A stretch of 64,000 bases of DNA from NCBI GenBank assembly GCA_028714335.1, contig JAQTMM010000001.1:8181-72180 (forward strand). Direction: 5' to 3'. Of the stretch, positions 3,362-22,031 are shown one piece after another. Position 1 is the first letter of the stretch. The number at the start of each line of letters is the position of its first letter. Source of the stretch: Dehalococcoidales bacterium (GTDB lineage: Bacteria; Chloroflexota; Dehalococcoidia; Dehalococcoidales; RBG-16-60-22). The position numbers were made by a program, and so were the translations under genes. The notes beneath the pieces were generated by a model. The model was not told the DNA's origin. It ran no database searches and worked only from the letters and a program-made list of their open reading frames with translations.

Positions 3362-3363
3362 TC

Positions 3364-5905: not shown

Positions 5906-5950
5906 AATAATGGGGTGTTATTTATACGTGTAAAATATTTAAGTTTATTA

Positions 5951-5996
5951 TACAATTATGAATTAAAACTGAAGGAAAGTTCAAAGGTTCTGTCTA
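5951..5996 (+). repeat. Copy 1 of a 46-bp intergenic direct repeat (tacaattatgaattaaaactgaaggaaagttcaaaggttctgtcta)
   Basis: Hand alignment to 7601-7646 gives 44/46 and to 21986-22031 gives 43/46, all in the same orientation. The flank gtattt..tta upstream is also similar. The downstream flank actgcagtccacca resembles the copy 3 flank. Confidence 0.9.
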
Positions 5997-6127
5997 TTAT
6001 ATACTGCAGTCCACCATTTTTCTCCTCCCACTATTTCCACAAAAAAATCAACAGGGTATTTTTCTTCTTTTATTTTTGGTACTATGTATTTACACACTAA
6101 GTGATGAAGTAGATATTAGGAGAGAAT

Positions 6128-7360
6128 ATGCTGGAAAGAAAAACGGGGATATCCGCATTTCCTGACAAGCTCGACGTGTACAGATTAACCGACAGTATAC
6201 GTACGGTACAGTGCAATTTACATCAGGAAGCTCATTACGCCTACGCAAGCTGGGTCATTACGGATGACGGAGTGGTCGTCATCGATACCGGCGAACCATC
6301 TATCAGTTCCCTAATCAATGAGGAAATCGCCAGGGAAACCGACAAACCGGTGAAATACGTGATATATACCCACGGACACGCTGATCATTCCCGCGGTACC
6401 TATGCGTTTATGAAGCACAATCCCAGGATAATCGCTCATGAAAATCTGATATCCCGGTTTAAACGCCACGAGTTGACTGCCGAATACATCAACAGGATCA
6501 TGAAAATCCAGATACACTTTGATCTGCAAAGCGAGCGTATGCCGAAGTACCCCTTCATTTATCCTACTGAAACATACACGAACGAATATGAATTCCGACT
6601 GGGAGGCAAGACCTTTTATTTGTTTCATGGCAAGGGAGAAACGGATGACCACACACTCGTCTGGATACCGGAAGAGAAGGCCGTATTCTGCGGGGACTTG
6701 CTGGAAGCTTCGTTTCCCAATCTGGGCAATCCCTTTAAAGTCCAGCGGTACGCTGAGGAATGGGCTGTTGCCATGGAAAGAGTACTCGCGCTTGACCCGG
6801 ATATTGCCATCGGCGGCGATGTCGTCCTTATTACTAAGGAAAAGATACTTGAAGTGCTTGGTGAGAATATTGAACTCCTGAGATTTCTCCAGGATTCGGT
6901 AGTAAAAGCAGCCAATGAAGGGAAAAGCCTGGAACAGATAACCGAGGAAATCCAGCTTCCCCCTCATCTGGAAAAAAGCCCTAATTTACGGCAGATATAC
7001 TCGCGGCGGGAGTTTGCTATCTACAACATATGGAAACGGTATTGCGGGTACTTTGATTTTTCCCCCTCCAGTCTCCTGCCCCGGCCTAAAAAGGAGCTAT
7101 CCGGCGTAGTACGCGGCCTCATAGGCAATGATGAAGCTATTGTAAGAGCGGCGAAGAAACTCATGGCCGATGGGCAGTTGCAACTCGCGCTTGAGACGTT
7201 GGATATTATTTTGAAAACAGATTATGAATATGTGCCTGCCCGCCGGGAGAGAATGGAGATACTCAAAAAGCTGTTTGATACTGATATATGCCTCATGTCA
7301 CGTAATACGTGGCTGTATTATCTTGAAGAGGACAAACGCTTTCTTGAACAGCACTCTTAG
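6128..7360 (+). CDS. MBL-fold metallo-hydrolase, alkyl/aryl-sulfatase-like (MBL domain plus helical C-terminal domain)
   Basis: 410 aa with metallo-beta-lactamase motif YTHGHADHSRG and later D/H ligands (GETDDHTLVW). SD aggagag lies upstream. The sulfatase-like subfamily is only an impression from the C-terminal helical region. Confidence 0.75.
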   Translation: MLERKTGISAFPDKLDVYRLTDSIRTVQCNLHQEAHYAYASWVITDDGVVVIDTGEPSISSLINEEIARETDKPVKYVIYTHGHADHSRGTYAFMKHNPRIIAHENLISRFKRHELTAEYINRIMKIQIHFDLQSERMPKYPFIYPTETYTNEYEFRLGGKTFYLFHGKGETDDHTLVWIPEEKAVFCGDLLEASFPNLGNPFKVQRYAEEWAVAMERVLALDPDIAIGGDVVLITKEKILEVLGENIELLRFLQDSVVKAANEGKSLEQITEEIQLPPHLEKSPNLRQIYSRREFAIYNIWKRYCGYFDFSPSSLLPRPKKELSGVVRGLIGNDEAIVRAAKKLMADGQLQLALETLDIILKTDYEYVPARRERMEILKKLFDTDICLMSRNTWLYYLEEDKRFLEQHS

Positions 7361-7584
7361 TGCTATTCGGTTATGGCCTATTCGTTAAAAACGTAGCATC
7401 AGACCAGTTCCCCTGCCTTGAGCTTCCTGATGAAGCCTGGGATACGCCAAAGCTGTTGTCTGAATGCCCACTTTGCCACAAAACACTAAAGTTTAACCCA
7501 TTCATTGTGGACAATAAAAGGAGATATAGGCGTAATAATCAAAGAAATTATATCGAGTACTACACAAATATCCAGAATGTATGA
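7360..7584 (+). CDS. Hypothetical small protein (74 aa), doubtful
   Basis: GTG start overlaps the stop of the MBL gene. It has a CPLCH motif and a basic tail, with no recognisable family and no SD. Confidence 0.25.
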   Translation: MLFGYGLFVKNVASDQFPCLELPDEAWDTPKLLSECPLCHKTLKFNPFIVDNKRRYRRNNQRNYIEYYTNIQNV

Positions 7585-7600
7585 TGTTTGTATTTTATTA

Positions 7601-7646
7601 CACAATTATGAATTAAAACTGAAAGAAAGTTCAAAGGTTCTGTCTA
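7601..7646 (+). repeat. Copy 2 of the 46-bp intergenic direct repeat
   Basis: cacaattatgaattaaaactgaaagaaagttcaaaggttctgtcta, with 2 mismatches to copy 1. It lies in the gap between convergent genes. Confidence 0.9.
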
Positions 7647-7749
7647 TGGTATTCAACCTTCCGCGGTGAGATATTTTGTTGTACCGCCATCGCGGAGTCT
7701 ACCCCCTATATTGATGGCTGGACTATAGGGGTAGTGTAAAATGAATTTT

Positions 7750-9252
7750 TTATTGTGCTTCCCATCCTTGCGCCCTCTCTACAGCACGTTTCCAGTTGTG
7801 ATATAGAGTTTCCCGTTCATCCGCATTCATCTTTGGCTCAAAGGTAGCGGTGCTGTGCCATTGTTTTCCGATTTCTTCCACATCTTGCCAAACCCCCACA
7901 GCTAAACCGGCCAGATAAGCCGCCCCCAGTGCTGTTATTTCGGGGATTTGTGCTCGTTGAATGGGTATACCAAGAATGTCTGCCTGGAATTGCATCAAGA
8001 GGTTATTAACACTGCCGCCACCATCAACACGGAGTACTGGAATTTTAATATTTGACGCTTCTTTTATAACATCGATAACATCACGGGTCTGATAGGCGAT
8101 TGCTTCTAATGCCGCTCTTGCCAGATGCCCTTTACTACTGCCTCGGGTGAGACCGAAAATAGAACCACGGGCATACATATCCCAATGAGGAGCGCCTAAT
8201 CCCACGAAAGCAGGTACAAAATAGACACCGCCGTTGTCAGGAACAATGCCCGCTAGTGTCTCGCTTTCGGCTGCGGTCTTGATCAGCCCCAGATTATCTC
8301 GTAACCATTGAATAACCGCCCCGGTTATAAAGATGCTGCCCTCCATCGCGTAAGTTGCCTGGTTCCTGAGCCCCCAGGCTACCGTGGTGATGATGCCTTT
8401 GTCAGAGAATATCGGTTTTTCGCCCGTATTTACCAGCACAAATGAACCCGTGCCGTAGGTGTTTTTTGCCATACCTTTTTGATGGCAGGCTTGACCGAAT
8501 AGACTTGCTTGCTGATCTCCAACGATACCCGCGACGGGTATATGCGCATCATCAAATATTCCTTCGGCAGTTTCTCCGTACACGAAACTCGATGGCAATA
8601 ACTGAGGCAATATGACGCTCGGGATGCCCAGTATTTGAAGAAGATCAGTATCCCACTGAAGCGTACTGATATTGAGCAACATAGTACGGCTGGCGTTAGA
8701 ATAATCTGTAACATGAATTTTCCCTTTGGTGAGATTCCAGACTAACCAGGTATCAATCGTACCGCAAATCAGGTCTCCTTGTTTTGCCCGTTCCCACCCG
8801 TGAGGAATATTATCCAGTAACCACTTAATCTTGGTGCCGGAGAAATAGGCGTCGATTGGTAGCCCAGTCTTTTGTCTAATTAGCTTTTCCAGTCCTTGTT
8901 TCTTCAGGTCCTCGCACAAACCAGAAGTACGGCGGCATTGCCAGCAGATTGAGGGATGGACCGGTTTCCCGCTGGATCGTTCCCACACCACCACACTCTC
9001 TCGCTGGTTGGTTATGCCCAGAGCACTTACTTTAGAGAAAGGAATGCCGGCTTTGTGCACAGCTTCATTCCCCACCGTAACACAGCTTTGGAAAATCTCA
9101 TCAGGAGCATGTTCCACCCATCCCGGTTGTGGAAAGATCTGGCGTATTTCCCGGTATGCCCGGGAAACCACATGGCCTTTTTCGTCAAATAACAAGGCGG
9201 TGCTACCGGTAGTGCCTTGATCTAAAGCTAGAATATAACTTCCTATAACCAT
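7750..9252 (-). CDS. glpK: Glycerol kinase
   Basis: 500 aa with an FGGY-family N-terminus YILALDQGTTGSTALLFD and conserved GlpK blocks (ITNQRESVVVWE, AYFSGTKIKWLLDN). Confidence 0.95.
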   Translation of the reverse strand: MVIGSYILALDQGTTGSTALLFDEKGHVVSRAYREIRQIFPQPGWVEHAPDEIFQSCVTVGNEAVHKAGIPFSKVSALGITNQRESVVVWERSSGKPVHPSICWQCRRTSGLCEDLKKQGLEKLIRQKTGLPIDAYFSGTKIKWLLDNIPHGWERAKQGDLICGTIDTWLVWNLTKGKIHVTDYSNASRTMLLNISTLQWDTDLLQILGIPSVILPQLLPSSFVYGETAEGIFDDAHIPVAGIVGDQQASLFGQACHQKGMAKNTYGTGSFVLVNTGEKPIFSDKGIITTVAWGLRNQATYAMEGSIFITGAVIQWLRDNLGLIKTAAESETLAGIVPDNGGVYFVPAFVGLGAPHWDMYARGSIFGLTRGSSKGHLARAALEAIAYQTRDVIDVIKEASNIKIPVLRVDGGGSVNNLLMQFQADILGIPIQRAQIPEITALGAAYLAGLAVGVWQDVEEIGKQWHSTATFEPKMNADERETLYHNWKRAVERAQGWEAQ

Positions 9253-10868
9253 CAGGCAACTCCTTTACGGAAGCTCTGACTGAGATCAACTAAATCCAAA
9301 TATTCCCGGATTTGTTTTTGTTTTTCTTTATTATTCCAACCTAATAATAATCCCATTTCTTGAGCGACTGATTCAACCGCGTTCCGGCCTTGGTTGTGAC
9401 TCAATCCGAGAACGCTACGGCGTAACATAAAATCACTAACAGTTAGGGCTTCTTCCTCCAATATTGCATGTTTTATTTGAGCAAATATATCCGGATATCC
9501 AGGTATGATATTTTCCCCCAGATGATTGTCCTGGTCAACATAAGCCAGTACTGAAGCTAGCCTTGAACCATAAATACTCGCGAGGTAACTGATAGTCTCG
9601 AAAGGGATGTCTTTTTTTCGGGATATTTTCAGTACATCCTCTTGACCGATTGCCGGACATCCGGGAAGCGGAGTCTGTGCCGTGGTGCAGGGGATATTTT
9701 TCAATAGCTTTTTACACACCAGGTTGACAGCTTCTTCAGCAATAGCACGGTAGGCAGTTATTTTACCTCCCAAAATCGATATTAAACCTGTCACTCCGTC
9801 TTTGCGTTGATGATCTATAAGTTTATGAGCTCTGGAGGTATTAGATTCTTTTTTCTTACTAGCTGTTACTAAAGCTCTTAATCCTGCCATAGTATAACAA
9901 ATATCATCGCGTGTAAATTGGGGAAAATAATTACAGGTCTCCGATACAAGATAATCGACATCCGTACTCCCAGCGCTTACTCTATCCAAATCGTCTGAAT
10001 AGTCTGTATCAGTTGTTCCGATTAGTGAGTAGCCGTTCCAGGGGATGACAAAAAAAACGCGATCGTCGCTTTTAGCAAACAGAAACAACGCCTGGCTAGT
10101 CAATTTCCGGGTTACCAGATGGATACCTTTTGTCCGGCGGAGATTATTCTGGCGGCTGAGGTGGACCTTATTCCAGATAAGATCAGCCCACGGTCCTGCC
10201 GCATTAATTACCATGCGTCCCCGTGCTATATATTCACGTCCCGTAATAATATCCCTAAGATTAATTCCCCTGATGGTATTACCATCCACTAGGAAACCGG
10301 TAGCTTCAGTATGGTTCAAGATGCAAGCGTTATTTCCTGCCGCACTAAGAGCGTTTTCCAGACAAAGCCGCTCCATATAGCGGGCTTGGCAATCATAAAA
10401 AAGATAAGAACCTACTAAATCCGGAATACTGGCTAGAGCCGGTTCCAGATTTAACGTTTCATCACGTGAGAGACGCTTACGAGACGGCAGACTTTTCCCC
10501 GCGGCTAGAATATCGTATAAGCACAGACCGAAAGGTAACGATATCCGGTATAATGGTTCACTCCGTAGCAGAGGTATGATGAAGGCGAGGCGGTCTACTA
10601 AGTGAGGAGCGATATGCAGCAGAGTTTCCCGCTCAAGTAGGTCTTGCCTGACCAGTTTGAAATCGAGCATGCGTAGATAACGTAGTCCGCCGTGGATCAG
10701 GCGGGTAGAGCTCGAAGTCGTACCGCAGGCGAAGTCCTCTTTTTCGACTAGTAAGGTATCTAGTCCACGGAGGGCGGCATCACGAACGATTCCGGTTCCT
10801 ATAATACCTCCCCCAATAACTATCAAATCGAACGTTTTATTTTTCAGGTTTTTAAAATTTCGTTTCAT
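9252..10868 (-). CDS. glpD: FAD-dependent glycerol-3-phosphate dehydrogenase
   Basis: 538 aa with FDLIVIGGGIIGTGIVRDAALRGL and the GTTSSSTRLIHGGLRYL block typical of GlpD/GlpA. Its stop abuts the glpK start. Confidence 0.85.
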   Translation of the reverse strand: MKRNFKNLKNKTFDLIVIGGGIIGTGIVRDAALRGLDTLLVEKEDFACGTTSSSTRLIHGGLRYLRMLDFKLVRQDLLERETLLHIAPHLVDRLAFIIPLLRSEPLYRISLPFGLCLYDILAAGKSLPSRKRLSRDETLNLEPALASIPDLVGSYLFYDCQARYMERLCLENALSAAGNNACILNHTEATGFLVDGNTIRGINLRDIITGREYIARGRMVINAAGPWADLIWNKVHLSRQNNLRRTKGIHLVTRKLTSQALFLFAKSDDRVFFVIPWNGYSLIGTTDTDYSDDLDRVSAGSTDVDYLVSETCNYFPQFTRDDICYTMAGLRALVTASKKKESNTSRAHKLIDHQRKDGVTGLISILGGKITAYRAIAEEAVNLVCKKLLKNIPCTTAQTPLPGCPAIGQEDVLKISRKKDIPFETISYLASIYGSRLASVLAYVDQDNHLGENIIPGYPDIFAQIKHAILEEEALTVSDFMLRRSVLGLSHNQGRNAVESVAQEMGLLLGWNNKEKQKQIREYLDLVDLSQSFRKGVA

Positions 10869-10931
10869 AAAGCGTCCTTTCTGATGCGAGACTAAGTATT
10901 CTAGGCGTATACAGGAATATTGGCTGATAGA

Positions 10932-11717
10932 CTAAATATGTTTTTTTAACCACTCCTCCATATCGGCCATAACTTGAAGATACTCGGGCTCATTAAATAT
11001 CTCGTGTAAAAGTCCGGCATAGGGCTTATGCGTCTTATCCGTAGAACCTATCATATCGTACAGGACCTTACTGCGTGCGCCGTCCTCACCGCCGGCGCCG
11101 GCCATAATCAGGACCGGTAGATGAATACTCGATACCTTGGCTGTCAATTCCTGCATTCTGTTCCGCATAGCATGATTTACCGGAACTGGCCCGTGATATA
11201 CCAGAGGGTCATTGACATAAGCGGCTATTACTGCGGGGTCCCGGCTGAGCGTGGCAACGGGCAAAGGTTGGCCAGGAGGTGGAGGTTGCATTGGCGGGGT
11301 GCCAGGTTTGACTAGACCTCCACCGGATGTGATTAGTCCGGTGAGTTCACTCTGGTACTCCAGGCAATAACACAGGCTAATTATGGACCCCATACTGTGT
11401 CCGATGAGGAATATTTTTTCCTTTGGATTCTTCCGGCGTATAATATCGAAAAAGGTTTTAAGGTCTAAGACGTAATCATGGAAATCATCCACCTGGACGC
11501 GTTCGCCATCCGATTTGCCATGCCCCCGGTGATCTAGAGCATAAACAGCAAAACCACGGGGAACGAAGTAGTTAACCACATTGTCATAGCGCCCGCTATG
11601 CTCTGCAAAACCATGGGCAATCAGCAAAATCGCCTTAGGTTGGCCTTCCGGCAGCCAGTACTGATAATAGATATTGAAGTCTCGGTATCCTTTAAAATTT
11701 GCTTCCTGGTGCTTCAT
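10932..11717 (-). CDS. Alpha/beta hydrolase, monoacylglycerol lipase / lysophospholipase-like
   Basis: 261 aa with HGFAEHSGRY, HRGHGKSDG and the nucleophile elbow GHSMGS. It lies directly upstream of glpD-glpK on the same strand. Confidence 0.8.
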   Translation of the reverse strand: MKHQEANFKGYRDFNIYYQYWLPEGQPKAILLIAHGFAEHSGRYDNVVNYFVPRGFAVYALDHRGHGKSDGERVQVDDFHDYVLDLKTFFDIIRRKNPKEKIFLIGHSMGSIISLCYCLEYQSELTGLITSGGGLVKPGTPPMQPPPPGQPLPVATLSRDPAVIAAYVNDPLVYHGPVPVNHAMRNRMQELTAKVSSIHLPVLIMAGAGGEDGARSKVLYDMIGSTDKTHKPYAGLLHEIFNEPEYLQVMADMEEWLKKHI

Positions 11718-11862
11718 TGAGATATCACTCCTCTATTAATTTATATATTCACCTGTTCAGTGGCGTACGGGGAATATCTGCTATTATCCAAGGTATACTA
11801 AATTGACAATTATTCTTAACTACTGTTAAGTATTAGTGAAATATTGGTTAATATTTACATAT

Positions 11863-11879
11863 TTGACAAATAATGTCAA
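11863..11879. promoter_or_regulatory. Candidate TetR operator overlapping a candidate promoter
   Basis: Inverted repeat TTGACA-aataa-TGTCAA lies 50 nt upstream of the TetR start. TATAAT is at 11884-11889. A second TTGACA is at 11803 and a CTTAAC-tact-GTTAAG palindrome is at 11815-11830. Confidence 0.45.
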
Positions 11880-11929
11880 TATGTATAATTATAGTATAAA
11901 CAAATAATTCACGAAAATGGAGCTTGTAG

Positions 11930-12463
11930 ATGAAAGATAAAAGAAGCATCACGCGCAAGCAAATAATTGATGCAGCATCTGCCTGCTTTGCCGAGTACGG
12001 TTATGACAAGACGACCTTTGATGACGTAGCCAAAAGAGCGGGGATATCAAGAACGCTAATATATACTTATTTTAAAAGCAAGCAGGAATTTTTCTTTACC
12101 ATGATGGACGAAAAACACAAAAATTACCTGCGTCAATCTCAAGAAGTGCTCAATTCTAGTCTGTCAACCAAGGAAAAATTACGTAAAATAATCGATATTT
12201 GGATAATCGACCCTCACCGGATTATATATAAATCTCCCCTGCCCAATATCTGGCTTAAACCGGTTAAAAGTATCCAGGAAAGTGAAAAGCTGTTAAGGGG
12301 AGACTTCATAAAATCACTTGTCCCTTTAGTCGGTTATGATTTAGCAGAGGTGATTGTCTTTTCTTACAAAGGGCTGCTGGATGATAAACCCTCAATTGAA
12401 ATTTTAGAAAAACGGACTGATATTCTGATTAGCAGCTTAAAGATGCTCCCGAACGATGAATAA
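11930..12463 (+). CDS. TetR/AcrR family transcriptional regulator
   Basis: 177 aa with an N-terminal HTH region RKQIIDAASACFAEYGYDKTTFDDVAKRAGISRTLIYTYFKSK. SD ggag lies upstream. Confidence 0.9.
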   Translation: MKDKRSITRKQIIDAASACFAEYGYDKTTFDDVAKRAGISRTLIYTYFKSKQEFFFTMMDEKHKNYLRQSQEVLNSSLSTKEKLRKIIDIWIIDPHRIIYKSPLPNIWLKPVKSIQESEKLLRGDFIKSLVPLVGYDLAEVIVFSYKGLLDDKPSIEILEKRTDILISSLKMLPNDE

Positions 12464-12523
12464 CTATTAAAGGTAACGTCAAGCCCCAATCATGACTATG
12501 TAGTTATAGATTTAGAAAGGAAA

Positions 12524-13918
12524 GTGGATTCCATGCAAATTGTTAAAACGGATAAAGGCAATGTTTCAGGAACAACGATTGGTGAACCCGGGAAAGAGGT
12601 ATCCGTTTTCAGGGGCATTCCATTCGCCGCTCCACCGGCGGGAGAATTCCGCTGGCAGGCACCACAACCAGTTAAAGCCTGGTCAGGAGTGCGTGATTGT
12701 ACGCAATTCAGTCTAACCGCTCCCCAGAATCCCAGGTTCGGCGATTTATCGGCCGGTGCCAGCGAAGACTGCTTATATCTCAATGTCTTGACACCGGCTG
12801 AAACTTTTGAAGACAAGCTGCCGGTGATGGTCTGGATGCATGGAGGGATGTATGCGCTCGGCTCGGGTAATGATCTCCTCTCAAATCACTGCCGGCTGCC
12901 GCAGCACGGCATCGTGCTCGTCACCATCAATATGCGGCTTGATGTTATCGGTCTCTTAGCTCATCCCCAACTTTCTGCTGAATCGCCCAACAGTGTTTCC
13001 GGTAACTATATGTTTCTGGATATGATAGCCGCATTACAATGGGTACAGCGCAATATCGCCGCCTTTGGAGGCGACCCTAAAAATGTCACCATCTTCGGTG
13101 AGTCCGGCGGCGGCGCCAAGGTTTCAACGCTTGTAGCCTCACCACTGACGAAAGGTCTATACCATAAAGCTATCTGCGAGAGCGGTACCGCTACCGCGAG
13201 GACATGGTGGACCGGTCAGCCTTTGGAAAAACTTGAGGCGATGGGAGAAAGGATTTTTGAAATACTCGGTGTCAAAACAATTGAAGCCGCTCGGGCTATC
13301 CCCTACAAAAAAATATACGAAGCCAACGCTCAATTAATCCAAGAGAGTGGCAGTCAATGGGGTATTGTCGACGCTGCCGTGGACGACTGGTTCCTGCCCG
13401 ATACTCCGCTTAACATCTACCGTGCCGGTAAAATGAATCCGGTCCCGTTAATTAATTGCGCCAATGCCGGCGAATTGACGACCATGTTCCCGATGCTGGT
13501 GCCTGGCTATGTTGAAATGTTTAGTGGGATGGAAAAAGCTGGCACTAGCAGCTACGCCTGCATTTTTGATCAGGTACCGGCAAATTGGCGGCAGGAAGGT
13601 ATGGAGCACGCACCCCATGGCCTTGAGTTGCTGTACGTTTTTGGAGACTATGACAATACAACCGGATGGTGGGAAATGACATACGGCATGATGTCAATGA
13701 TGGGTTCACCGCTCAAATCGAAAACCCCAGGGCTGAACGAAACAGACAAGTACGTATCCGAGTCGATGATGAGATACTGGACGCAGTTTGCCCGCAACGG
13801 TGATCCTAACGGGAACGGGCTGCCAGAGTGGCCGGTATATACTACTTTAAATAACAGTTATTTATATATGAATGAGACACTTGAAGTTAAAACCGGTTTT
13901 TCTGAAATATCCAAGTAA
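12524..13918 (+). CDS. Type-B carboxylesterase (para-nitrobenzyl esterase-like), paralog 1
   Basis: 464 aa with FRGIPFAAPP, EDCLYLNV and the nucleophile motif GESGGG. No signal peptide. Confidence 0.9.
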   Translation: MDSMQIVKTDKGNVSGTTIGEPGKEVSVFRGIPFAAPPAGEFRWQAPQPVKAWSGVRDCTQFSLTAPQNPRFGDLSAGASEDCLYLNVLTPAETFEDKLPVMVWMHGGMYALGSGNDLLSNHCRLPQHGIVLVTINMRLDVIGLLAHPQLSAESPNSVSGNYMFLDMIAALQWVQRNIAAFGGDPKNVTIFGESGGGAKVSTLVASPLTKGLYHKAICESGTATARTWWTGQPLEKLEAMGERIFEILGVKTIEAARAIPYKKIYEANAQLIQESGSQWGIVDAAVDDWFLPDTPLNIYRAGKMNPVPLINCANAGELTTMFPMLVPGYVEMFSGMEKAGTSSYACIFDQVPANWRQEGMEHAPHGLELLYVFGDYDNTTGWWEMTYGMMSMMGSPLKSKTPGLNETDKYVSESMMRYWTQFARNGDPNGNGLPEWPVYTTLNNSYLYMNETLEVKTGFSEISK

Positions 13919-13933
13919 CAAAATGGAGTGTTT

Positions 13934-15673
13934 ATGGAAAGAATCGTTGACGAGATAGTGTATCCTAATCCCACTCCTCCCGGCGTTAACCTCGAAAAAA
14001 ATGTGTATGCGACTATGCGTGACGGCATAAAAATAGCACTAGATATCTATAAACCAGCCGATGAAAAAGGACCATGGCCGGTTATATTAGCCTATTCTCC
14101 TTTCCCCAAGGAGCGCATTTTCGAAAGTGCCAAACCCGGTTTTTATTGCTCTCATGGTTATGTGTGTGTGCAGGCTAGCGAGCGTGGCAGCGGTTTTAAC
14201 CAGGGTAGATTCAATTTACACGGAACGCAGGCTGCGCAGGATGGATATGACCTGGTGGAATGGATTGCCGGGCAACCATGGTGTACTGGGAATGTGGGTA
14301 TGATGGGCGCTTCCGGTTACGGCGTTATGCAGTGGCTAACTGCGCCCCTGAATCCGCCTCACTTAAAAGCGTTGGTAGTGCTGGCTACCACGGACAATTA
14401 CCGGGGCCTGTGTTACCCCGGCGGCGTGTTACGTAAACCGTTTGTCTTGAACCTGGTTTCAGGATTGACGCAAGGAGCAATTTGGCCCGGCCCTATCTCC
14501 GGCAAAGAAATGCCCATGAATGTCATTGCGGAAATCCTGGCACATACGGAAGACGGGCCTTTCTGGTGGGAGCACGGCGGCGGCTGGAAGCGGATAAGCG
14601 AGATAAAAGCTCCAGTATTGAATATTGTCAACGCGCCTAATCGTTTACATGCCATCTATCATTTAAGATCGTATGCGGATATAAAGTCCCCGAAGAAACT
14701 TATCGTGACCCCGTGGACTAACGAGAACTACCAGCCATGGATATTCGAAACAACAGCCTTCAATATGCAAATATTGCGATGGCTGGACTACTGGCTGAAA
14801 GGTGTCGACACCGGCATCATGGATGAACCGGAAGTAGCTATCTTCGATAACGGTATTGGAACCTGGCGGTATGAAAACGAGTACCCGTTAAAGCGTACCG
14901 TGTGGACGAAATTCTATCTACATGATGAAGTAATCAACCAGACGCAACCCCTAGCAAATGAACAACCTGATTTCTACGAAAATATCAGTCTGAATACTGC
15001 CATGTTGGCTTCTTACGGTATCGATATGCCAGTTTCTCCAAAGAAAAACTATATAACGTATCTTTCATCACCTCTGGAGGAAGATATCAAGGTGTGTGGG
15101 CCGGTTAGTTTTACGCTATATGCCTCGACTACTGAAGAGGTTACTAGCGACTGGTCGTTCTTCATAAAAATGGGAGAGATGGTGTCTGAAGGAACTCCTC
15201 TTAACCCCATTACCGATCAGCCAGAAACAAAGCCCGAGGTTAACGATAGATTTACACCAGAGAATGTTCAGATATGGAGCTGGGGTTCACTCAAGGCAAA
15301 GTTCCGTGAAATTGACGAGAGACTGTCTCGACCCGGCTCTCCGTGGCACTCGTATCAAAGCTCCCAACAGCTGGAGCCCTGTACTATCTACGAGTTTCAG
15401 ATTGAACTCCAACCGGTCTTTAAAACTTTTAGAAAAGGCTGTCGTATCTGGCTAAAAATCGCCAGTGACGATGTTCTTTATGCCACGCTGGATAGCGCAT
15501 CGAGGTATGTAGAAACACCAATTTCACCGGAAAACAGCCAGATTTCCATTTATCATAACGTTAAGTATCCATCGCATATATTGCTGCCCGTCATTCCAGA
15601 CGCTCCTGAAATCGCGTCTGTAAAACCACCACTATGCGACGCCTTACCGGGAGCACCGCGTTTTACGGAATAA
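13934..15673 (+). CDS. CocE/NonD family hydrolase (X-Pro dipeptidyl-peptidase S15 family)
   Basis: About 579 aa with typical N-terminal blocks (MRDGIKIALDIYKP, GYVCVQASERGSG, DGYDLVEWIAGQPWCTGNVGMMGASGYG). I chose ATG 13934 (SD ggag 5 nt upstream) over GTG 13928. Confidence 0.85.
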   Translation: MERIVDEIVYPNPTPPGVNLEKNVYATMRDGIKIALDIYKPADEKGPWPVILAYSPFPKERIFESAKPGFYCSHGYVCVQASERGSGFNQGRFNLHGTQAAQDGYDLVEWIAGQPWCTGNVGMMGASGYGVMQWLTAPLNPPHLKALVVLATTDNYRGLCYPGGVLRKPFVLNLVSGLTQGAIWPGPISGKEMPMNVIAEILAHTEDGPFWWEHGGGWKRISEIKAPVLNIVNAPNRLHAIYHLRSYADIKSPKKLIVTPWTNENYQPWIFETTAFNMQILRWLDYWLKGVDTGIMDEPEVAIFDNGIGTWRYENEYPLKRTVWTKFYLHDEVINQTQPLANEQPDFYENISLNTAMLASYGIDMPVSPKKNYITYLSSPLEEDIKVCGPVSFTLYASTTEEVTSDWSFFIKMGEMVSEGTPLNPITDQPETKPEVNDRFTPENVQIWSWGSLKAKFREIDERLSRPGSPWHSYQSSQQLEPCTIYEFQIELQPVFKTFRKGCRIWLKIASDDVLYATLDSASRYVETPISPENSQISIYHNVKYPSHILLPVIPDAPEIASVKPPLCDALPGAPRFTE

Positions 15674-15780
15674 AGTTAATGCTAAAAGATAATATGGCTA
15701 GAGCGGTTTCCCAAACACTATTATTTATTGGCGCCACTTAAAAGCTAAAAGATTTTTGTTAAGGAAGGGCTGATAGAAAA

Positions 15781-16221
15781 ATGAATGATTATGAGAAAAG
15801 ACTAAAGAAATTAGAGGATATCCAAGCCATCAAGGATTTACATAGAGAATATGTTTACTGGGTTAATAACTGTGAATGGGATAAAGTAATTGAGTGTTTC
15901 ACAGAAGACTGTTCTGTCAATATCGGGAGTTGGGGTTTACGCAATGGCAAAGATTCGCTGCCAAAACTCTTTAAAGAAGATATCGCCCATAATAACAAAG
16001 GCAAAGGCAGGGATGGCCATTTTGCTATTATGCCCGTAATTACTGTTGACGGTGATAAAGCCAAAGGCCATTGGTTAATGTATATTATGATATCAGACCC
16101 GAAAACCGGGAAAGCCCTGAAGTGGGCAATCGGAAGACATGACGTAGAATATGCCAGACTCAATGGAAATTGGAAGATTCATAATATTATTTGGGCTAGT
16201 CCTTGGCCGGCGAATCTTTAA
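15781..16221 (+). CDS. SnoaL-like / NTF2-fold protein
   Basis: 146 aa. The N-terminus LEDIQAIKDLHREYVYWVNNCEWDKVIECFTEDC is typical of SnoaL_4-type NTF2-like proteins. Confidence 0.65.
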   Translation: MNDYEKRLKKLEDIQAIKDLHREYVYWVNNCEWDKVIECFTEDCSVNIGSWGLRNGKDSLPKLFKEDIAHNNKGKGRDGHFAIMPVITVDGDKAKGHWLMYIMISDPKTGKALKWAIGRHDVEYARLNGNWKIHNIIWASPWPANL

Positions 16222-16371
16222 TTATTTTTTCAAGGCAGGATTCACGGTTTTGTTGTCTTTATTACATCTCTGCAATATAATCAGGTACGGATTCATAGTG
16301 ATTTAAAATATTACCTGCAGATTACTGACTCTACCATAATCTTGTAAAAAGTAAAGTTTTTAGAGGCGAAA

Positions 16372-17019
16372 ATGGGTAAAAAATGTCTGATTACGTATTC
16401 CTCAATCACAGGCCACACAGAAAAAGTGGCGCTTAAATTCAAAGATACATTTGAAACACGCGGCTGGCAATGTGATGTTTTCAAAGTACGTAAAAACGCT
16501 GAAGATATTCTCCGGCCTCCTTTTGATATCCGTTCCTATGATTTTGTATGCGCCGGCTCTGGACTAAGGGCTCATCTACCTTATAATGAAGTACTAAACA
16601 TGTTAAGAGGATTTAGAACGGGGATGGATCCTCGCATTACGTTAAAGTTCAGGGATGAAACCATTTCCTATATAAATGAACCCGTACCTGAAATACCTCC
16701 ACACAAAGACCCAAAGATTGAACATAAAAAAATAATTCTGGGACCCGATTCACCTAAGGCAGTAGTATTCATCACCTATGCCGGCTACGAATTCGGACCT
16801 AAAGAGGCAGAGCCTGCTTCAACGTTACTGGCATTAGAACTGGAGCATATCGGTTTCCAATGTATTGGTCATTTTTACTGTCCGGGTACGTATCTTGATA
16901 ATCCCATGCCCAGGACTTTCCATGGAGATATCCGCGGCAGACCTGATGAGAAAGATTTACTGAAAGCACAGATGTTTATCGAAGAAAAGCTTGAGGAGAT
17001 AGCTGACCGGAATAAATAA
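16372..17019 (+). CDS. Flavodoxin-like fold protein
   Basis: 215 aa. The N-terminal KCLITYSSITGHTEKVA resembles the flavodoxin FMN phosphate-binding loop. A long insertion follows. Confidence 0.55.
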   Translation: MGKKCLITYSSITGHTEKVALKFKDTFETRGWQCDVFKVRKNAEDILRPPFDIRSYDFVCAGSGLRAHLPYNEVLNMLRGFRTGMDPRITLKFRDETISYINEPVPEIPPHKDPKIEHKKIILGPDSPKAVVFITYAGYEFGPKEAEPASTLLALELEHIGFQCIGHFYCPGTYLDNPMPRTFHGDIRGRPDEKDLLKAQMFIEEKLEEIADRNK

Positions 17020-17047
17020 TCCCGTCGGCAGAAAGAACATTGACGTT

Positions 17048-17989
17048 ATGAGTACGATAAATTCCGTTCTCGGCCCACTAGATACTAAAGACCTAGGTTT
17101 TACGTTAATGCATGAACATGTGATGTGTCAGGCCTTCGTTGCAGATAATTATCCTGAACTCTTCGGCGATGGTTACATGAACCATATTATTAATGGCGTA
17201 ACAGCGGCTAAGAAAGGCGGCGTTGATACCATCATTGACGCTACTACTTTCGACCTAGGGCGAGATGTAACGAGACTGGCTGAAATTGCCCGGCGTACTA
17301 AGGTTAACATTATAGCCTGTACCGGATGGTGGATGAATGCACCCGAGCACATCGCTGGTAATTCTCCTGACTTATATGCCGACCTGTTCGTCCGAGAGAT
17401 TCAACAAGGTATTGCCGGCACCGGAATTAAAGCCGGCATCCTTAAATCCGCGGCCGATTTTGGAGGTGTAACGGCAACAGGTGAAATAATGTTGCGCGCT
17501 GTGGCTAGAGCCCACCGCCGGACTTTAGTCCCTATCATGTTGCATTCATACGCTCCTGAACAGGTAGCCAGACGGCAGTTAGCTATCCTTAAAGAGGAGG
17601 GGGTTGAACTGAAAAGGGTCGCGGTTGACCATGTTAATGACACCACTGATTTTGAATACCTTAACTGGCTTTTAGAACAGGGATGTTATCTTGGTATGGA
17701 CCGTTATCCGGGGCTCAACTTAAGTTCATATGCCCGAACAAAAACCCTGAAGCAGTTAATTGATGATGGATGGATTGACCGCCTGCTTCCTTCGCATGAT
17801 TTATGTTTGGTTACTCCTTTAACATTTTATCCGCCTGAAGTAAAAGCAAGTATTGATAAGGAGAATCCCTATGGATATCTTTACATCAAGGAGGTTGTAT
17901 TCCGCCAGCTTGAAGATATGGGAGTATCACAAGCTGTGTTGAAAACGCTTTGTATAAATGGTCCGAGGAAGTTTTTCGAGGGCTTATAG
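17048..17989 (+). CDS. Phosphotriesterase-related amidohydrolase (PTE/PHP family, possibly lactonase)
   Basis: 313 aa with GFTLMHEHV (HxH metal motif), conserved later His residues (IMLHS, DHVND) and the SHD block. Confidence 0.8.
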   Translation: MSTINSVLGPLDTKDLGFTLMHEHVMCQAFVADNYPELFGDGYMNHIINGVTAAKKGGVDTIIDATTFDLGRDVTRLAEIARRTKVNIIACTGWWMNAPEHIAGNSPDLYADLFVREIQQGIAGTGIKAGILKSAADFGGVTATGEIMLRAVARAHRRTLVPIMLHSYAPEQVARRQLAILKEEGVELKRVAVDHVNDTTDFEYLNWLLEQGCYLGMDRYPGLNLSSYARTKTLKQLIDDGWIDRLLPSHDLCLVTPLTFYPPEVKASIDKENPYGYLYIKEVVFRQLEDMGVSQAVLKTLCINGPRKFFEGL

Positions 17990-18019
17990 AGTATTTTTAT
18001 TCAACGGTAATATACTAGT

Positions 18020-19561
18020 ATGATTAGACCACAACAAGAGAAAAAGATAATCAATACCCGGGTTGGCTACCTGCCGCCCCTGAAACCGCCGCCTGTTAAA
18101 AACAGAAAAGACATAGTCCCTGAGAGGATTTATAATTTTGAAATTCCGTCTGATCCCGTTCCATTTAGTGAAATCAAGAAATATATAGATGCTGAAGTTG
18201 TGGTAGTAGGGGCTGGCATCGCCGGATTAAGTGCGGCTCTTTCTGCAGCCGAAGCAGGGACCAAGACTATATTGTTAGAAAAGACGGCTACAGTCCAGGC
18301 TCGCGGTCATGATAACGCCTTTATCGGCAGCCGGCTTCAAGCGAAGTTAGGCATAAAAATTGATAAAGACGAAATCATCTTGAATCTCATGAAATACGGG
18401 GCTAACAAACCCGATCAAAGATTGATAAGGATGTGGGCAGAGGGAAGCGGAAAAACTGCAGACTGGCTGATGGATATGACGGATACTGCGGGTATCGAGG
18501 TGATTATAAAACAATATCCTCCCCCACCAGCATTCAATAACACTACCGAATATTATCCTCAATACCACGTTACGCACCATTATCGTAATGAACGTCTGGT
18601 AGCAAAATGCTTACTAGATAATGCAATAAAAAAAGGCGTTGTCACGTATTTTAAGACTCGTGCTAAGCAATTGTTGCGAAAAGGAAAAGACCGGGTCACC
18701 GGCGTCATCGCCCAAAATGAAGCTGGAGAATATCTACAATTCAATGCTGCTAAAGCCGTTATACTCTGTACCGGAGATTACGGCAATAACGCCGAAATGA
18801 TGGCTAAATATTGTCCTCAATCAGCCTATCTCGCGCCAATGATACTTACCTCTACCGGAGATGGGCATATAATGGCTATGTGGATTGGTGGCGTAATGGA
18901 ACCGGGACCGCATACACCGATGATACACGGCCCCGCCGGTCCCCTGCTTAGTGCGGCCTACTTACAAGTAAATCTCCTTGGGAAAAGATTTCAAAATGAA
19001 GATGTACCGATTCAAAGTAATGTCAATGCCGTTGAACGACAACCCAATAGAATAGCCTGGCAGGTATTCGATTCCAAATATCCGGCTGAACTCCCTTATC
19101 ATGGGCTGGGCTTGGGTAAAATTATCATTGCGACGGGAAAAATACGGCAGGAAGTATCCCAAGTAGCTATCGCAGCCAACTCAATCGAAGAACTGGCGGT
19201 AAAGATGAAACTGCCCATCGTAACGTTCAAGGCTACCGTAAAGAGGTACAATGAATTGGCACGTTCGGGGAAAGACCTGGATTTTGGGAAACGGTCTGAC
19301 CGGATGTCTCCGATTGACAAGCCACCATACTATGCCGGTAAAAGTGGTTATTCTTTACTTACCGTCCTGGGTGGTCTGAATATCAATGATAGGTTACAGC
19401 CACTAGATAAAAACTGGGAAGTCATTCCTGGAATTTATCTTGCAGGAAATACCATGGGTAACCGTTTCTCTATCGATTACCCAACTATGTGTCCCGGGCT
19501 TAGTCACGGTATGGCCATACACTATGGGCGGATTGCTGGTTTAAACGCAGTATATCAATAA
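18020..19561 (+). CDS. FAD-dependent oxidoreductase, FAD_binding_2 type (3-ketosteroid dehydrogenase / fumarate-reductase flavoprotein-like)
   Basis: 513 aa with dinucleotide motif VVVVGAGIAGLSAALSAAEAG and C-terminal PGIYLAGN. Subfamily cannot be fixed by eye. Confidence 0.75.
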   Translation: MIRPQQEKKIINTRVGYLPPLKPPPVKNRKDIVPERIYNFEIPSDPVPFSEIKKYIDAEVVVVGAGIAGLSAALSAAEAGTKTILLEKTATVQARGHDNAFIGSRLQAKLGIKIDKDEIILNLMKYGANKPDQRLIRMWAEGSGKTADWLMDMTDTAGIEVIIKQYPPPPAFNNTTEYYPQYHVTHHYRNERLVAKCLLDNAIKKGVVTYFKTRAKQLLRKGKDRVTGVIAQNEAGEYLQFNAAKAVILCTGDYGNNAEMMAKYCPQSAYLAPMILTSTGDGHIMAMWIGGVMEPGPHTPMIHGPAGPLLSAAYLQVNLLGKRFQNEDVPIQSNVNAVERQPNRIAWQVFDSKYPAELPYHGLGLGKIIIATGKIRQEVSQVAIAANSIEELAVKMKLPIVTFKATVKRYNELARSGKDLDFGKRSDRMSPIDKPPYYAGKSGYSLLTVLGGLNINDRLQPLDKNWEVIPGIYLAGNTMGNRFSIDYPTMCPGLSHGMAIHYGRIAGLNAVYQ

Positions 19562-19572
19562 GGAGGGACTTG

Positions 19573-21012
19573 ATGAATCAAATTAAATTAGATACTGGTG
19601 ATATTACAGGCTCTAAAGTAAGTCAATCGGGTCGTGATGTCTATATCTATAAAGGCATTCCTTATGCCGCCCCTCCGGTTGGTGAATTACGCTGGAAGCC
19701 GCCGCAGCCGGCAGCATTGTGGTCCGGTGTCCTGGCATGTACCGAATTCAGTGTTCAAGCCGCCCAATACCCGGACCCCAATGGTCCCGGGACAATGAAA
19801 AGTGTAGCAACGAGTGAAGATTGCCTTTACCTAAACGTCTTGACTCCAACTCAAAATAAAAACGATAAGTTACCAGTGATGGTTTGGTTGCATGGCGGCG
19901 GTCTTAGATATGGAAACGGCAACTTTCCTTTAAGTGTCAATCTCGGGCTGCCACTCCATGGAGCCGTGCAGGTGAATATTAATCATCGCTTAGGGGTCAT
20001 GGGCCTACTGGCGCATCCCCTGCTTACCAGAGAATCTTCCCAACACGCTTCAGGTGATTACATGTTCCTCGATATGATAGCTGCCTTACAATGGGTAAAA
20101 CGAAATATTGCCGCTTTTGGCGGCGACCCCAATAATGTGACCATCTTTGGCGAGTCCGGCGGTGGACTGAAAGTTGCCGCCCTTATGGCTTCACCATTAG
20201 CTAATGGGTTATTCCATCGGGCGATCATCGAAAGCGGCGGACGTTACTTCGATTCAGAACCACTCAAAGAAATGGAAACGTTCGGAGAAAGACTATTTCA
20301 CAAACTCGGCATTGATAAAGAAAAAGACCCTCTAGCCGCAGTACGTGAATTACCCTGGGAAACGATTATTAATACCGATCAGGAACTTAATACTGAGATG
20401 GGGCCGGAATACCTGTTCATGGGTCCGTGGCAAGTTGTTCACGAAGGCTGGTTTTTGCCGGAGAACTTAGTCGACATGTTCCAGAACGGCCGGAGGAATC
20501 AAGTACCTTATATCGTGGTAGCCAACAAAGGAGAGTTGACCGGTCCCGGTTCGCTGATTGCCAACATGATGATTAAAGACTACTTAAGGTTATTAACCGG
20601 GCAAAGTACTGCTAATTCGCGGGGATACGCCGCGCTCTTTGACCAGGTGCCGGAAGGTTGGAAGCGCGAAGGCTGTGTGGCGTCTCATGGCATGGAACTG
20701 CATTTTGTATTCGGCGCTCTCGATGATACAGAATCCTGGGCGGCGAGTAAGGGCGGGTACGCTTCTTCTGGAGCACAGTCTCCGATTCCTACGATATCTA
20801 ATTCGGATAGGGTAGTTGCTGAAACCATTCTGACCATATGGACTACGTTTGCCAAAACCGGTAATCCCAGCGTGAAAGGACTCATCGAGTGGCCGGCCTG
20901 GGATGAAGCTACTGATAAATATCTATTAATTACCGATCCTCTTCAGATAAAGCAAGGATATTCTGACCTCATGAAAATTAAACCTGACACATCGAAATGG
21001 ACCATTGTTTAG
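19573..21012 (+). CDS. Type-B carboxylesterase, paralog 2
   Basis: About 479 aa with YKGIPYAAPP, EDCLYLNV and GESGGG, clearly paralogous to 12524-13918. ATG 19573 has the SD aggaggg 5 nt upstream; TTG 19570 is the alternative. Confidence 0.9.
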   Translation: MNQIKLDTGDITGSKVSQSGRDVYIYKGIPYAAPPVGELRWKPPQPAALWSGVLACTEFSVQAAQYPDPNGPGTMKSVATSEDCLYLNVLTPTQNKNDKLPVMVWLHGGGLRYGNGNFPLSVNLGLPLHGAVQVNINHRLGVMGLLAHPLLTRESSQHASGDYMFLDMIAALQWVKRNIAAFGGDPNNVTIFGESGGGLKVAALMASPLANGLFHRAIIESGGRYFDSEPLKEMETFGERLFHKLGIDKEKDPLAAVRELPWETIINTDQELNTEMGPEYLFMGPWQVVHEGWFLPENLVDMFQNGRRNQVPYIVVANKGELTGPGSLIANMMIKDYLRLLTGQSTANSRGYAALFDQVPEGWKREGCVASHGMELHFVFGALDDTESWAASKGGYASSGAQSPIPTISNSDRVVAETILTIWTTFAKTGNPSVKGLIEWPAWDEATDKYLLITDPLQIKQGYSDLMKIKPDTSKWTIV

Positions 21013-21127
21013 TGATAACGTTGTTGAGGAATCGTATTGTATCCCTAGGGAGAAAATATACAAAAGTCTATCCAAAAAAGTTCAATATTACGTATCAGCA
21101 GTTAAATAAGTCATAGGAGAGGCACTC

Positions 21128-21886
21128 ATGAAAACTAGCGGTAATACAATTTTGATTACAGGAGGAGCCACCGGTATCGGTTTCGGCCTCGCTGAAGCTT
21201 TTATAAATGCAGGTAACAGAGTGCTTATTTGTGGGAGAAGACAGGCTAAGCTAGAAGAAGCCAGACTAAAATTACCGGATTTACAGATATTTCAATGTGA
21301 TGTCACGTCAAAAGATGGTCGCGAATCTCTCTGCAATTGGGTAAAAAATCAGCATCCAAGTTTAAATATCTTAGTGAATAATGCTGGAGTTTCTGGCCTT
21401 ATCGATTTTAAGAAAGGTGTTCCGGAAGCATTTAAAAGCGAAGATGAAATTGAAACCAACCTTAAAGCTCCGGTATTGTTATCAGGTTATTTTATACCTC
21501 TGCTACTAGGGAAAACCGACGCTGCGATTATCAACATTTCTTCAGGTTTAGCTTTCATTCCCCTGGTTTCTTCACCTTTATACGGTGCCACTAAAGCCGG
21601 GCTCCATTCCTTCAGCCTCGCTTTAAGATTCCAATTGAAAGACACAAATATTAAAGTCTTTGAGCTGATGCCGCCAATCTGTGACACGGATTTAGGCAAG
21701 GATGCTTCCGACGATGCCCCAAGACCATCGTATCTTAAGGGAATCCCGCCTTCCGAATTTGCTAAAGATGCGTTAACCGCTATAGAGAATGATCAATATG
21801 AATTTGCCTCCGGTGAAGCCAAACAGCTGAAAGATGGTTCCCAGCGGAACTTTGAAGAGACTTTTCAATCAACTAATAGCCGGTAA
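21128..21886 (+). CDS. Short-chain dehydrogenase/reductase (SDR)
   Basis: 252 aa with cofactor motif TGGATGIG, NNAG and catalytic YGATK. Confidence 0.9.
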   Translation: MKTSGNTILITGGATGIGFGLAEAFINAGNRVLICGRRQAKLEEARLKLPDLQIFQCDVTSKDGRESLCNWVKNQHPSLNILVNNAGVSGLIDFKKGVPEAFKSEDEIETNLKAPVLLSGYFIPLLLGKTDAAIINISSGLAFIPLVSSPLYGATKAGLHSFSLALRFQLKDTNIKVFELMPPICDTDLGKDASDDAPRPSYLKGIPPSEFAKDALTAIENDQYEFASGEAKQLKDGSQRNFEETFQSTNSR

Positions 21887-21985
21887 TACGCATTATATAT
21901 TGTGGTTCAAACAGAGTCCGACTCTCCCCAGACTCCTTACTCAGCTAAATAAATGTCTATTTTGTTGAATATCGGTATTTGAGTG

Positions 21986-22031
21986 TACAATTATGAATTT
22001 AAACTGAAGGAAAGTTCAAAGGTTCTATCTG
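21986..22031 (+). repeat. Copy 3 of the 46-bp intergenic direct repeat
   Basis: tacaattatgaatttaaactgaaggaaagttcaaaggttctatctg, with 3 mismatches to copy 1. The downstream flank actgcagcccatca resembles the copy 1 flank. It is followed by a bulged hairpin at 22057-22084. Confidence 0.9.

Follow-up and report, generated by a model that had tools for sequence, protein, structure and literature searches.

Why should one short intergenic sequence recur three times, always in the same orientation, among the accessory genes of a Dehalococcoidales bacterium? We examined this question in a stretch of 64,000 nucleotides from that organism (assembly GCA_028714335.1, contig JAQTMM010000001.1, positions 8,181 to 72,180 of the forward strand), referred to below as the window. 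Comparison with related loci, each designated by an L number, leads us to read the element, at about even confidence, as a boundary repeat derived from an attachment (att) site and belonging to integrase-less mobilizable islands akin to the ssrA islands of Dehalococcoides. It looks like a variant of the known genomic-island boundaries linked to tRNA and tmRNA genes, and not like a new kind of system.

Three copies of the element in the window

A 45-mer taken from copy 1 matched the window at 5951–5995, 7601–7645 and 21986–22030, all on the plus strand, with 0, 2 and 2 mismatches; it had no match in 100 dinucleotide-preserving shuffles (chance expectation 0). The initial annotation, which had placed three direct copies at 5951, 7601 and 21986, was correct on this point, and re-reading of the sequence returned the same identities to copy 1 over 46 nt (44/46 and 43/46). 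The 46 bp assigned to the element at that stage cover only part of it, and a profile built from related copies extended each of the three to ~72 nt (Table 1). The likeness of the tail to a tRNA or tmRNA 3' end and the ~72-nt length had been overlooked. When 280 nt around each copy were aligned, similarity was limited to the element and a few flanking bases; an upstream flank described earlier as gtattt..tta is present, weak and specific to this window. The tails of copies 1 and 3 have ACTGCAG(T/C)CCA(C/T)CA in common, the CCACCA of copy 1 being changed to CCATCA in copy 3, and the tail of copy 2 (ATGGTATTCAACCTTCCGCGG) differs. Between copies 1 and 2 the identical stretches are only 22–23 nt. 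The triplets ATG-AAT-TAA, attributed previously to all three copies, occur in copies 1 and 2 only, copy 3 reading ATG-AAT-TTA-AAC-TGA. Profile search found no fourth copy in the window, and a candidate diverged copy upstream of a zf_Tbcl gene (~30213), which the profile missed, was dropped.

Recombination within the element explains a 1.65-kb indel

The relative L077 offers a direct comparison. By blastn, window positions 1–5997 aligned to L077 5492–11487 at 97.1% and window positions 7594–13298 to L077 11434–17139 at 95.3%, the two alignments overlapping in L077 by 54 nt that make up a single element copy. L077, L078 and L079 (95–97% identical to the window) have the order periplasmic substrate-binding protein (PBP) gene, one element copy, glpK. 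The single copy of L077 is a hybrid: its first bases and the flank 5' of it are those of copy 1, and its tail and the DNA downstream follow copy 2, at 95% identity. The window and L077 differ by 1,650 bp, namely a segment with one gene of the MBL (metallo-beta-lactamase) type plus one repeat unit, and the point of exchange falls within the element, somewhere from column 9 to column 53. These alignments show that whether the 1.65-kb MBL segment is present or absent is explained by recombination between two direct copies, at a point within the element. Direct repeats therefore delimit a strain-variable segment here, as att sites do, and the proposal that the segments between copies are gained or lost as units holds for copies 1 and 2, whose 1,650-bp MBL unit is missing from L077.

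The tail and a genuine tRNA end are interchangeable

The consensus tail corresponds to the 3' end of a tRNA gene, comprising the 3' strand of the T-stem, the acceptor strand and ACCA. Its 3' 18 nt agreed with the last 18 nt of the tRNA-Ile gene of locus L069 at 15/18 positions, with a local alignment score of 21 compared with 9.8 ± 2.0 for shuffles (shuffle maximum 18); reproduction of a tRNA 3' end is what an att site would lead one to expect. The tails of copy 1 (TCCACCA) and of the copies in L060 and L066 look more tmRNA-like, the latter two matching the ssrA end at 14/16 positions by eye, and the copy 2 tail matched the T-arm of an ssrA repeat at 13/17, which is not significant (z about 1.8).

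Locus L069 has an intact tRNA-Ile(GAU) gene (7035–7111, ARAGORN), whose last bases are ...ATGGCCCACCA and after which TTTTTCTCC comes directly. Copy 1 of the window ends in ...GCAGTCCACCA, and TTTTTCTCC comes next there too. The homology between the two loci begins at window position 6011, inside the CCACCA common to the tRNA and the copy 1 ends, and runs through the MBL segment (Table 1); past 7419 it is not significant. L069 and the window have no other close gene in common, the best further match reaching 53% amino-acid identity. Homologous junctions of relatives thereby show that the tail and the 3' end of a genuine tRNA-Ile gene can stand in for each other. The same two assemblies (JGI 3300029288 and ENA ERZ27247363) yielded both L069 and L077, and we infer one population with the arrangements PBP-element-glpK and tRNA-Ile-MBL, the window genome having PBP-element-MBL-element-glpK. 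The earlier idea of cassette-like segments gains support for its MBL part, since the segment sits after tRNA-Ile in the samples that yielded the relative L077. A further MBL homologue, 95% identical, was observed in L073, where an ssrA repeat in reverse complement (TGGTGGAGACGGGGGAGGG, L073 857–893, minus strand) lies ~150 nt away. With the MBL gene beside the element, a tRNA-Ile gene and an ssrA repeat, it occupies an island-boundary position in three different contexts.

ssrA repeats occupy the same junction in relatives

The flank that follows the PBP gene and its terminator is conserved in relatives up to ..TAAGT (alignment z about 6.9), and the sequences beyond it are listed as junction alleles in Table 1. 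Where the window and L077 carry the element, recognised ssrA repeats stand in L080 (intact), L085 (decayed) and L082 (an inverted pair of T-arm fragments). The last 19 nt of the L080 repeat, GGAGTTCGACCCTCCCCCGTCTCCACCA, are the Dehalococcoides ssrA direct repeat, recognised via a primer in PMC3146451. L080 has direct ssrA 3'-end repeats at 709–747 and 9510–9547, 8.8 kb apart, enclosing genes for a GerE regulator, an ABC transporter, an AMP-binding enzyme and the PBP in a block orthologous to window 1–5835; with direct repeats on both sides, this block is an integrase-less, repeat-bounded island in that relative. The expectation of cassette boundaries was thus borne out in distant relatives, where an ssrA 3'-end repeat lies at the same junction with different genes downstream each time. 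In L082, positions 8509–8547 form a near-perfect palindrome, GGTGGAGTTCGA-GTAGGG-TCGAACTCCACC, in which two fragments of the ssrA T-arm face each other in inverted orientation, a pattern that inversion or head-to-head recombination at the T-loop might leave.

A decayed ssrA repeat also precedes copy 3 in the window (Table 1); by eye it is identical to GTGTTTCAGGTGGAGTTCGACCCTCCCCCGTCTCCACCA at 27/39 positions. L003 has the same order, an ssrA repeat (5972–6009) and then the element (6075–6147) with 66 nt between them, and the spacers from ssrA repeat to element in the window and L003 both hold ATTTTGTT(C/G)AAT. At the PBP junction, a second homologous junction, the whole element is shown to be interchangeable with an ssrA 3'-end repeat.

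An element family in Dehalococcoidia

The family was collected by exact-match scans with a 21-nt core, one genome per species, supplemented by a metagenome scan. The core scan returned the ~72-nt unit in 12 Chloroflexota contigs from metagenome-assembled genomes (MAGs), mostly Dehalococcoidia, plus three chance matches, and the metagenome scan yielded ~34 further contigs. The collection comprises ~40 distinct copies, with one to three on a contig. In each, a conserved arm of ~50 nt (consensus ATTGAACAATTATGAATTCAGGCTGAAGGAAAGTTCAAAGGTTCTG) precedes a tail of ~20 nt; across the whole family (alignment A2) the consensus is ATTGAACAATTATGAATTCAGGCTGAAGGAAAGTTCAAAGGTTCTGTGTATTGTACACTGTGGCCCACCAT. 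Profile searches found diverged copies with other cores. Columns outside the scan requirement (4–27 and 48–73) are ~80–90% conserved among genomes whose flanking genes are unrelated. This conservation is real, and calls for either constraint or recent horizontal spread.

Copies inside one genome are more alike than copies elsewhere, and two copies on one scaffold (L010 and L013) share 132 nt at 91%, the similarity ending at GCCCAC. Metagenome copies with one common flank diverge at or just past the element. The gene upstream is co-directional in 26/36 cases and the gene downstream has no strand preference; in L015, a 316-aa gene lies between two copies. Low copy number and the tie to presence/absence polymorphism distinguish the element from a generic repetitive extragenic palindromic (REP) sequence, the alternative against which the initial annotation had set its proposal. 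Of two scans of viral contigs, one produced a single chance match and the second none; phage and plasmid collections likewise contained no match, and the core sequence did not turn up in a literature search.

Several side observations concern the edges of the copies. In L004, L007, L029, L050, L058, L026, L039 and L084, the contig ends inside or at the element or an ssrA repeat, the expected behaviour of a multi-copy sequence that breaks assemblies. In L030, L066, L063, L037 and L049 the tail runs on as CCACC-TGA-GGGGAYTCGAAC, the last part being a reverse-complement T-arm, and a diverged second copy in L015 (3565–3623, minus strand) has a motif of the GGGGAYTCGAAC type on both sides.

Proposed mechanism and points against it

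We regard the element as a junction sequence because it stands at gene-content breakpoints, has a tRNA/tmRNA-type tail, is replaced by a tRNA end or an ssrA repeat, and brackets an indel. Under the att-derived boundary reading, a mobilizable island would integrate into the 3' end of a tRNA or tmRNA gene, and the element would be the island-side junction (attR type). The arm may be the recombinase-binding part of the island end and the tail the duplicated end of the target. Repeated integration would produce tandem segments, each ending in a direct copy, and so an island-accretion zone. A recombinase encoded elsewhere in the genome would presumably act in trans; a tyrosine integrase is one candidate, and a serine recombinase of the DsiB/CcrB type, as in the Dehalococcoides ssrA islands, is another. 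The segments between copies would then behave as integrase-less cis-mobilizable elements, and recombination between copies would add or remove the DNA that they flank.

A number of results weigh against this reading. No recombinase gene stands beside a repeat in the window or in the ~40-copy neighbourhoods: Pfam searches of ~65 open reading frames (ORFs) in the window found no integrase, transposase or other recombinase, the DNA up to 8 kb from the ~40 copies encodes no recurrent protein family, and the large ORFs beside ten copies are not recombinase-like on inspection of their sequences (no Pfam scan was made of these). By comparison, about half of the Dehalococcoides islands have an integrase right beside the repeat. 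An intact target gene together with an attL was not seen for any copy, the right end of the MBL segment (7419) has no recognisable site, and the reverse-complement, T-arm-like GGGGAYTCGAAC follows some copies with no complete tRNA there. The junctions fall at different columns, 9–53 for the window and L077, up to 57, up to 71 and up to 75 in other comparisons, but at least 65 for L042 and L052; a single crossover site is thus not apparent, and homologous recombination or slippage between repeats also fits. The invariance of the 19–21-nt core is an artefact of exact-match retrieval. The L077 copy carries three core substitutions, a rate about that of the flanks, and judged on this copy the core shows no sign of visibly stronger constraint than flanking DNA. 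For the 14.3-kb block between copies 2 and 3, movement as a unit is conjectural, the comparison covering the block as far as the end of the L077 contig inside it. The GC content of the left 22 kb of the window (45%, compared with 51% in the core-gene part) is consistent with accessory DNA and is weak evidence. Of the explanations first put forward, a site-specific recombination target stands in part: the copies mark cassette-like boundaries, L077 having a single hybrid copy and lacking the 1,650 bp, whereas no recombinase was found and the junctions lie at different columns.

Alternative explanations

Several of these points are equally what would be expected if the copies were passive scars, that is, fossil island junctions with no present site-specific function, whose indels result from RecA-dependent recombination or replication slippage. 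Junctions at different columns, the lack of a recombinase nearby, core substitutions in L077 at about the flank rate and the degenerate tails of copies 2 and 3 would all follow. We nevertheless consider passive scars unlikely, though the strongest of the alternatives. The arm and tail columns that retrieval did not require are ~80–90% conserved despite unrelated flanking genes; the MBL segment lies at two CCACCA-ended sites in ~95% identical genomes, for which deletion alone is insufficient; and copies 1 and 2 offer homologous recombination only 22–23 identical nt in a row, a short stretch for that process.

Could the element instead be a small RNA gene, a tRNA-sized and tRNA-derived noncoding RNA with an encoded CCA, at which rearrangements cluster as they do at tRNA genes? 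A discrete ~72-nt unit with sharp boundaries and an ACCA end, standing in for a tRNA gene upstream of MBL, present in few copies per genome and usually co-directional with the gene upstream (26/36), would suit such a gene. Its structure does not. RNAalifold gave 4 invariant pairs at -1.5 kcal/mol, and neither mutual information nor a test of the named helix revealed complementary covariation. An inverted repeat of columns 7–13 with 53–59 is conserved in sequence and pairs in 81% of cells, without covariation. Four of five sequences, the reverse complement included, folded worse than their shuffles (z +0.9 to +1.5, and -0.06 for copy 3; z-scores computed with RNA energy parameters only). Rfam at gathering thresholds, applied to the window and to 8 loci, returned only noise; for four short regions searched at E<=10 it reported nothing tRNA-like in the element, only noise and a 5.8-bit tmRNA 3'-end match on the L080 repeat. 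ARAGORN, applied to the window and ~55 loci, reported only a tRNA-Glu in L015 (opposite strand) and the tRNA-Ile of L069, with no tmRNA, permuted or not. The element also lacks a 5' acceptor strand and a conserved upstream promoter. A small RNA gene is accordingly improbable in our assessment, and the small RNA or termination module suggested earlier finds no conserved structure, covariation or Rfam match.

A regulatory DNA module, acting as operator or promoter for a lineage-wide DNA-binding protein through, for example, an inverted pair of ATTGWACAAT-like motifs or the AAGTTC/AGGTTC half-repeats, is less probable still. The inverted motif (columns 7–13 and 53–59) pairs without covariation, as a DNA site would. 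Each window copy has a promoter-like TTGAAC-18-CATAAT on the minus strand, pointing leftwards (5955–5984, 7605–7634 and 21990–22019), and TG[AT]ACAA is modestly enriched in downstream flanks (0.74 versus 0.13 per kb, 3 sites). Across the family, however, the first two -10 positions (columns 16–17 of A2) vary freely, for which a sigma-70 promoter module was rejected, and the neighbouring genes have neither function nor orientation in common. Such a module would leave the tRNA-like tail and the replacement by an ssrA repeat or tRNA unaccounted for. The earlier suggestion of a shared regulator-binding site is not supported, no conserved promoter having been found.

A miniature transposable element (a MITE or an IS200/IS605-type end) inserting beside T-arm-like or CCA-ended sequence would explain the sharp boundaries and the ~50 nt by which the arm in L077, compared with L080 and L085, extends directly 5' of an ssrA-like fragment, but is very unlikely given the low copy number (1–3 per contig), the lack of terminal inverted repeats, target-site duplications and subterminal hairpins, and the lack of a transposase, TnpB or IscB gene near any copy (comparison of neighbour families and ORF inspection). 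Rfam HEARO and IS605-orfB RNAs gave no match, and a REP-type repeat was rejected on the same copy number and ends.

Other identities were tried and dropped. As a conserved peptide, one forward frame of the consensus is open, with TAG or TAA at the fourth codon in many copies; read in reverse as an integrase C-terminus, all three codon positions vary and TAG occurs in about a third of copies. The likeness of GCGTATTGT to the R388 nic site was set aside because neither an adjacent hairpin nor a relaxase was found. Half-sites misfit dif/Xer, LexA-box and NtcA-box readings (hand comparison only).

Gene context of the window

All three copies are intergenic, and the gene context is as the initial annotation described it. 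Copies 1 and 2 bracket a single MBL/alkyl-sulfatase-like gene (6128–7360), the homologues of whose product at 60–95% identity are labelled Dehalococcoidales or Dehalococcoidia; the agmatinase encoded in the window is identical to that of a Dehalococcoidales MAG at NCBI. Copies 2 and 3 bracket 14.3 kb with genes, assigned by Pfam, for glpK, glpD, a lipase, a TetR regulator, two carboxylesterases, an S15 peptidase, a phosphotriesterase, a FAD oxidoreductase and an SDR dehydrogenase. The first 5.6 kb of this block are collinear with L077 at 95%, up to the end of that contig, and the block has a GC content of 45.2%, compared with 51.2% in the core-gene part at 48–64 kb. ARAGORN found no tRNA or tmRNA gene in the window; together with the Pfam results on the ~65 ORFs, this agrees with the earlier statement that the window has no integrase, transposase or tRNA. 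The sole IstB-like Pfam match is a DnaC-type helicase loader beside DnaB.

Further observations concern other parts of the window. Two strong hairpins, CCGCG...CGCGG and CTACCCCCTATA...TATAGGGGTAG, lie at 7661–7734, separating copy 2 from the glpK 3' end; they are kept in L077 and are probably terminators of convergent genes. The two carboxylesterase genes of the 14.3-kb block (12524–13918 and 19570–21012) are paralogues with ~71% DNA identity over 240 nt, seen indirectly via L077. Window 30213–30462, the 5' region of a gene for a treble-clef zinc finger protein (zf_Tbcl), is 73% identical to L069 8591–8843, the two contigs being otherwise non-syntenic. The L069 gene stands first in a cluster that also encodes RRM proteins and a DEAD helicase, and the matching stretch may represent a conserved leader belonging to a cold-shock-like regulon. 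On the minus strand, 48790–51969 contain two class Ic aminoacyl-tRNA synthetase genes side by side, one of the GlnRS and the other of the GluRS type.

Table 1 Features of the window and alleles of the junction that follows the PBP gene
Feature	Window coordinates	Strand	Content	Evidence or remarks
Element copy 1	5946..6017	+	Arm ~5946–5995, tail TATTATATACTGCAGTCCACCA ending 6016	Profile E=4e-18; 45-mer exact
Element copy 2	7596..7666	+	Same arm, tail ATGGTATTCAACCTTCCGCGG weakly resembling ssrA T-arm	Profile E=1e-15
Element copy 3	21981..22052	+	Arm and tail CTGTTGGACACTGCAGCCCATCA	Profile E=4e-19; 45-mer with 2 mismatches
Segment absent from L077	5998..7593	+	Copy 1 tail, MBL gene 6128–7360, 176 nt unique DNA, copy 2 5' flank	
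MBL segment shared with L069/L070	6011..7419	+	In L069/L070 directly after intact tRNA-Ile(GAU)	blastn, 94.2% identity
Decayed ssrA 3'-end direct repeat	21902..21936	+	45 nt upstream of copy 3	nhmmer E=0.005, profile of L080 and L003 repeats
14.3-kb block between copies 2 and 3	7667..21980	.	Pfam assignments	Candidate for mobility as a unit
Junction allele, window/L077			Element; downstream glpK	PBP identity 99% (L077)
Junction allele, L080			Intact ssrA repeat GGAGTTCGACCCTCCCCCGTCTCCACCA; downstream FAD-binding genes	PBP identity 80%
Junction allele, L085			Decayed ssrA repeat; downstream HD-domain gene	PBP identity 89%
Junction allele, L082			Inverted pair GGTGGAGTTCGA / TCGAACTCCACC; downstream zinc-ribbon, nitroreductase and CoA-transferase genes	PBP identity 81%

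Relation to known systems and significance

The ssrA islands of Dehalococcoides are arranged in tandem and bounded by ssrA 3'-end repeats (PMC3146451; also PMC13390414), and about half of them are without an integration module and hence read as cis-mobilizable (PMC3146451). The present loci resemble them in belonging to the same bacterial class, in their tandem accessory segments, many of them without an integrase, in direct repeats that copy a tRNA-like 3' end, and in the synteny breaks found there. Moreover, a repeat of the Dehalococcoides type, CCCTCCCCCGTCTCCACCA, occurs at the element's own junction in relatives at 80–89% identity, and a decayed copy lies beside copy 3. The differences concern the element itself, which at ~72 nt is longer than the published 20-bp repeat and consists mostly of an arm that is not tmRNA or tRNA sequence, with a tail that is tRNA-Ile-like or otherwise CCACCA-ended and not an ssrA end. 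The conserved part of the element lies upstream of the tRNA-like end, whereas in the ssrA islands the conserved 3' end of dsiB lies downstream of the repeat, and no DsiB-type module was seen beside any element copy.

Accretion at tRNA genes, as in the ICESt1/ICESt3 model, yields cis-mobilizable elements (CIMEs), att-flanked segments without an integrase that are moved by a related integrase in trans. The window segments are like CIMEs in having direct att-type repeats around DNA without its own integrase, and differ in that no integrase-bearing partner or circular form was observed here. Integron attC sites are also short repeats of one orientation between single genes or small groups, as with MBL and the 316-aa gene of L015, usually with a co-directional gene upstream; unlike attC, the element has no RYYYAAC...GTTRRRY core sites at its ends, no stable single-strand hairpin, no intI and no attI, and the genes downstream of it are as often on the opposite strand. 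An attC identity was rejected after direct comparison: a 5' ATTGAAC matches R'' at 6/7, but the complement GTTCAAA is mid-element, the 3' end is CCCACCA and there is no stable fold; Pfam found no intI or other tyrosine recombinase in the 64 kb. REP sequences and their composite forms (BIMEs) are likewise short, intergenic and present in several copies per genome, whereas the element is low-copy (1–3 per contig) and non-palindromic, has a tRNA-like tail and stands at gene-content breakpoints.

A bolder version of the att-derived reading supposes a cassette system of Dehalococcoidia served by an integrase in trans, in which the ~72-nt pseudo-tRNA-end module is a portable docking site interchangeable with tRNA and tmRNA 3' ends. 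We consider this version improbable, as we do a related variant in which the module would also be expressed as a tRNA-derived small RNA ending in CCA. If true, the cassette system would mean that single genes such as that of the MBL hydrolase are shuttled between tRNA genes, ssrA repeats and module copies, and that an integron-like platform for gene capture has been built on mimicry of tRNA ends.

Dehalococcoidia have small genomes, and their ecological range, including organohalide respiration, hydrolases and transporters, hangs on a few plasticity zones. The boundaries of these zones have so far been described only as 11–25-bp ssrA 3'-end repeats, in the Dehalococcoides and Dehalogenimonas genomes studied. 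Our comparison suggests that tRNA-Ile, ssrA repeats and the element are equivalent docking points. The window and L077 form a clean pair of occupied and empty sites, so that recombination is directly testable, and the longer, recognisable boundary module common to many uncultured Dehalococcoidia offers a practical marker for island junctions and assembly breaks in MAGs.

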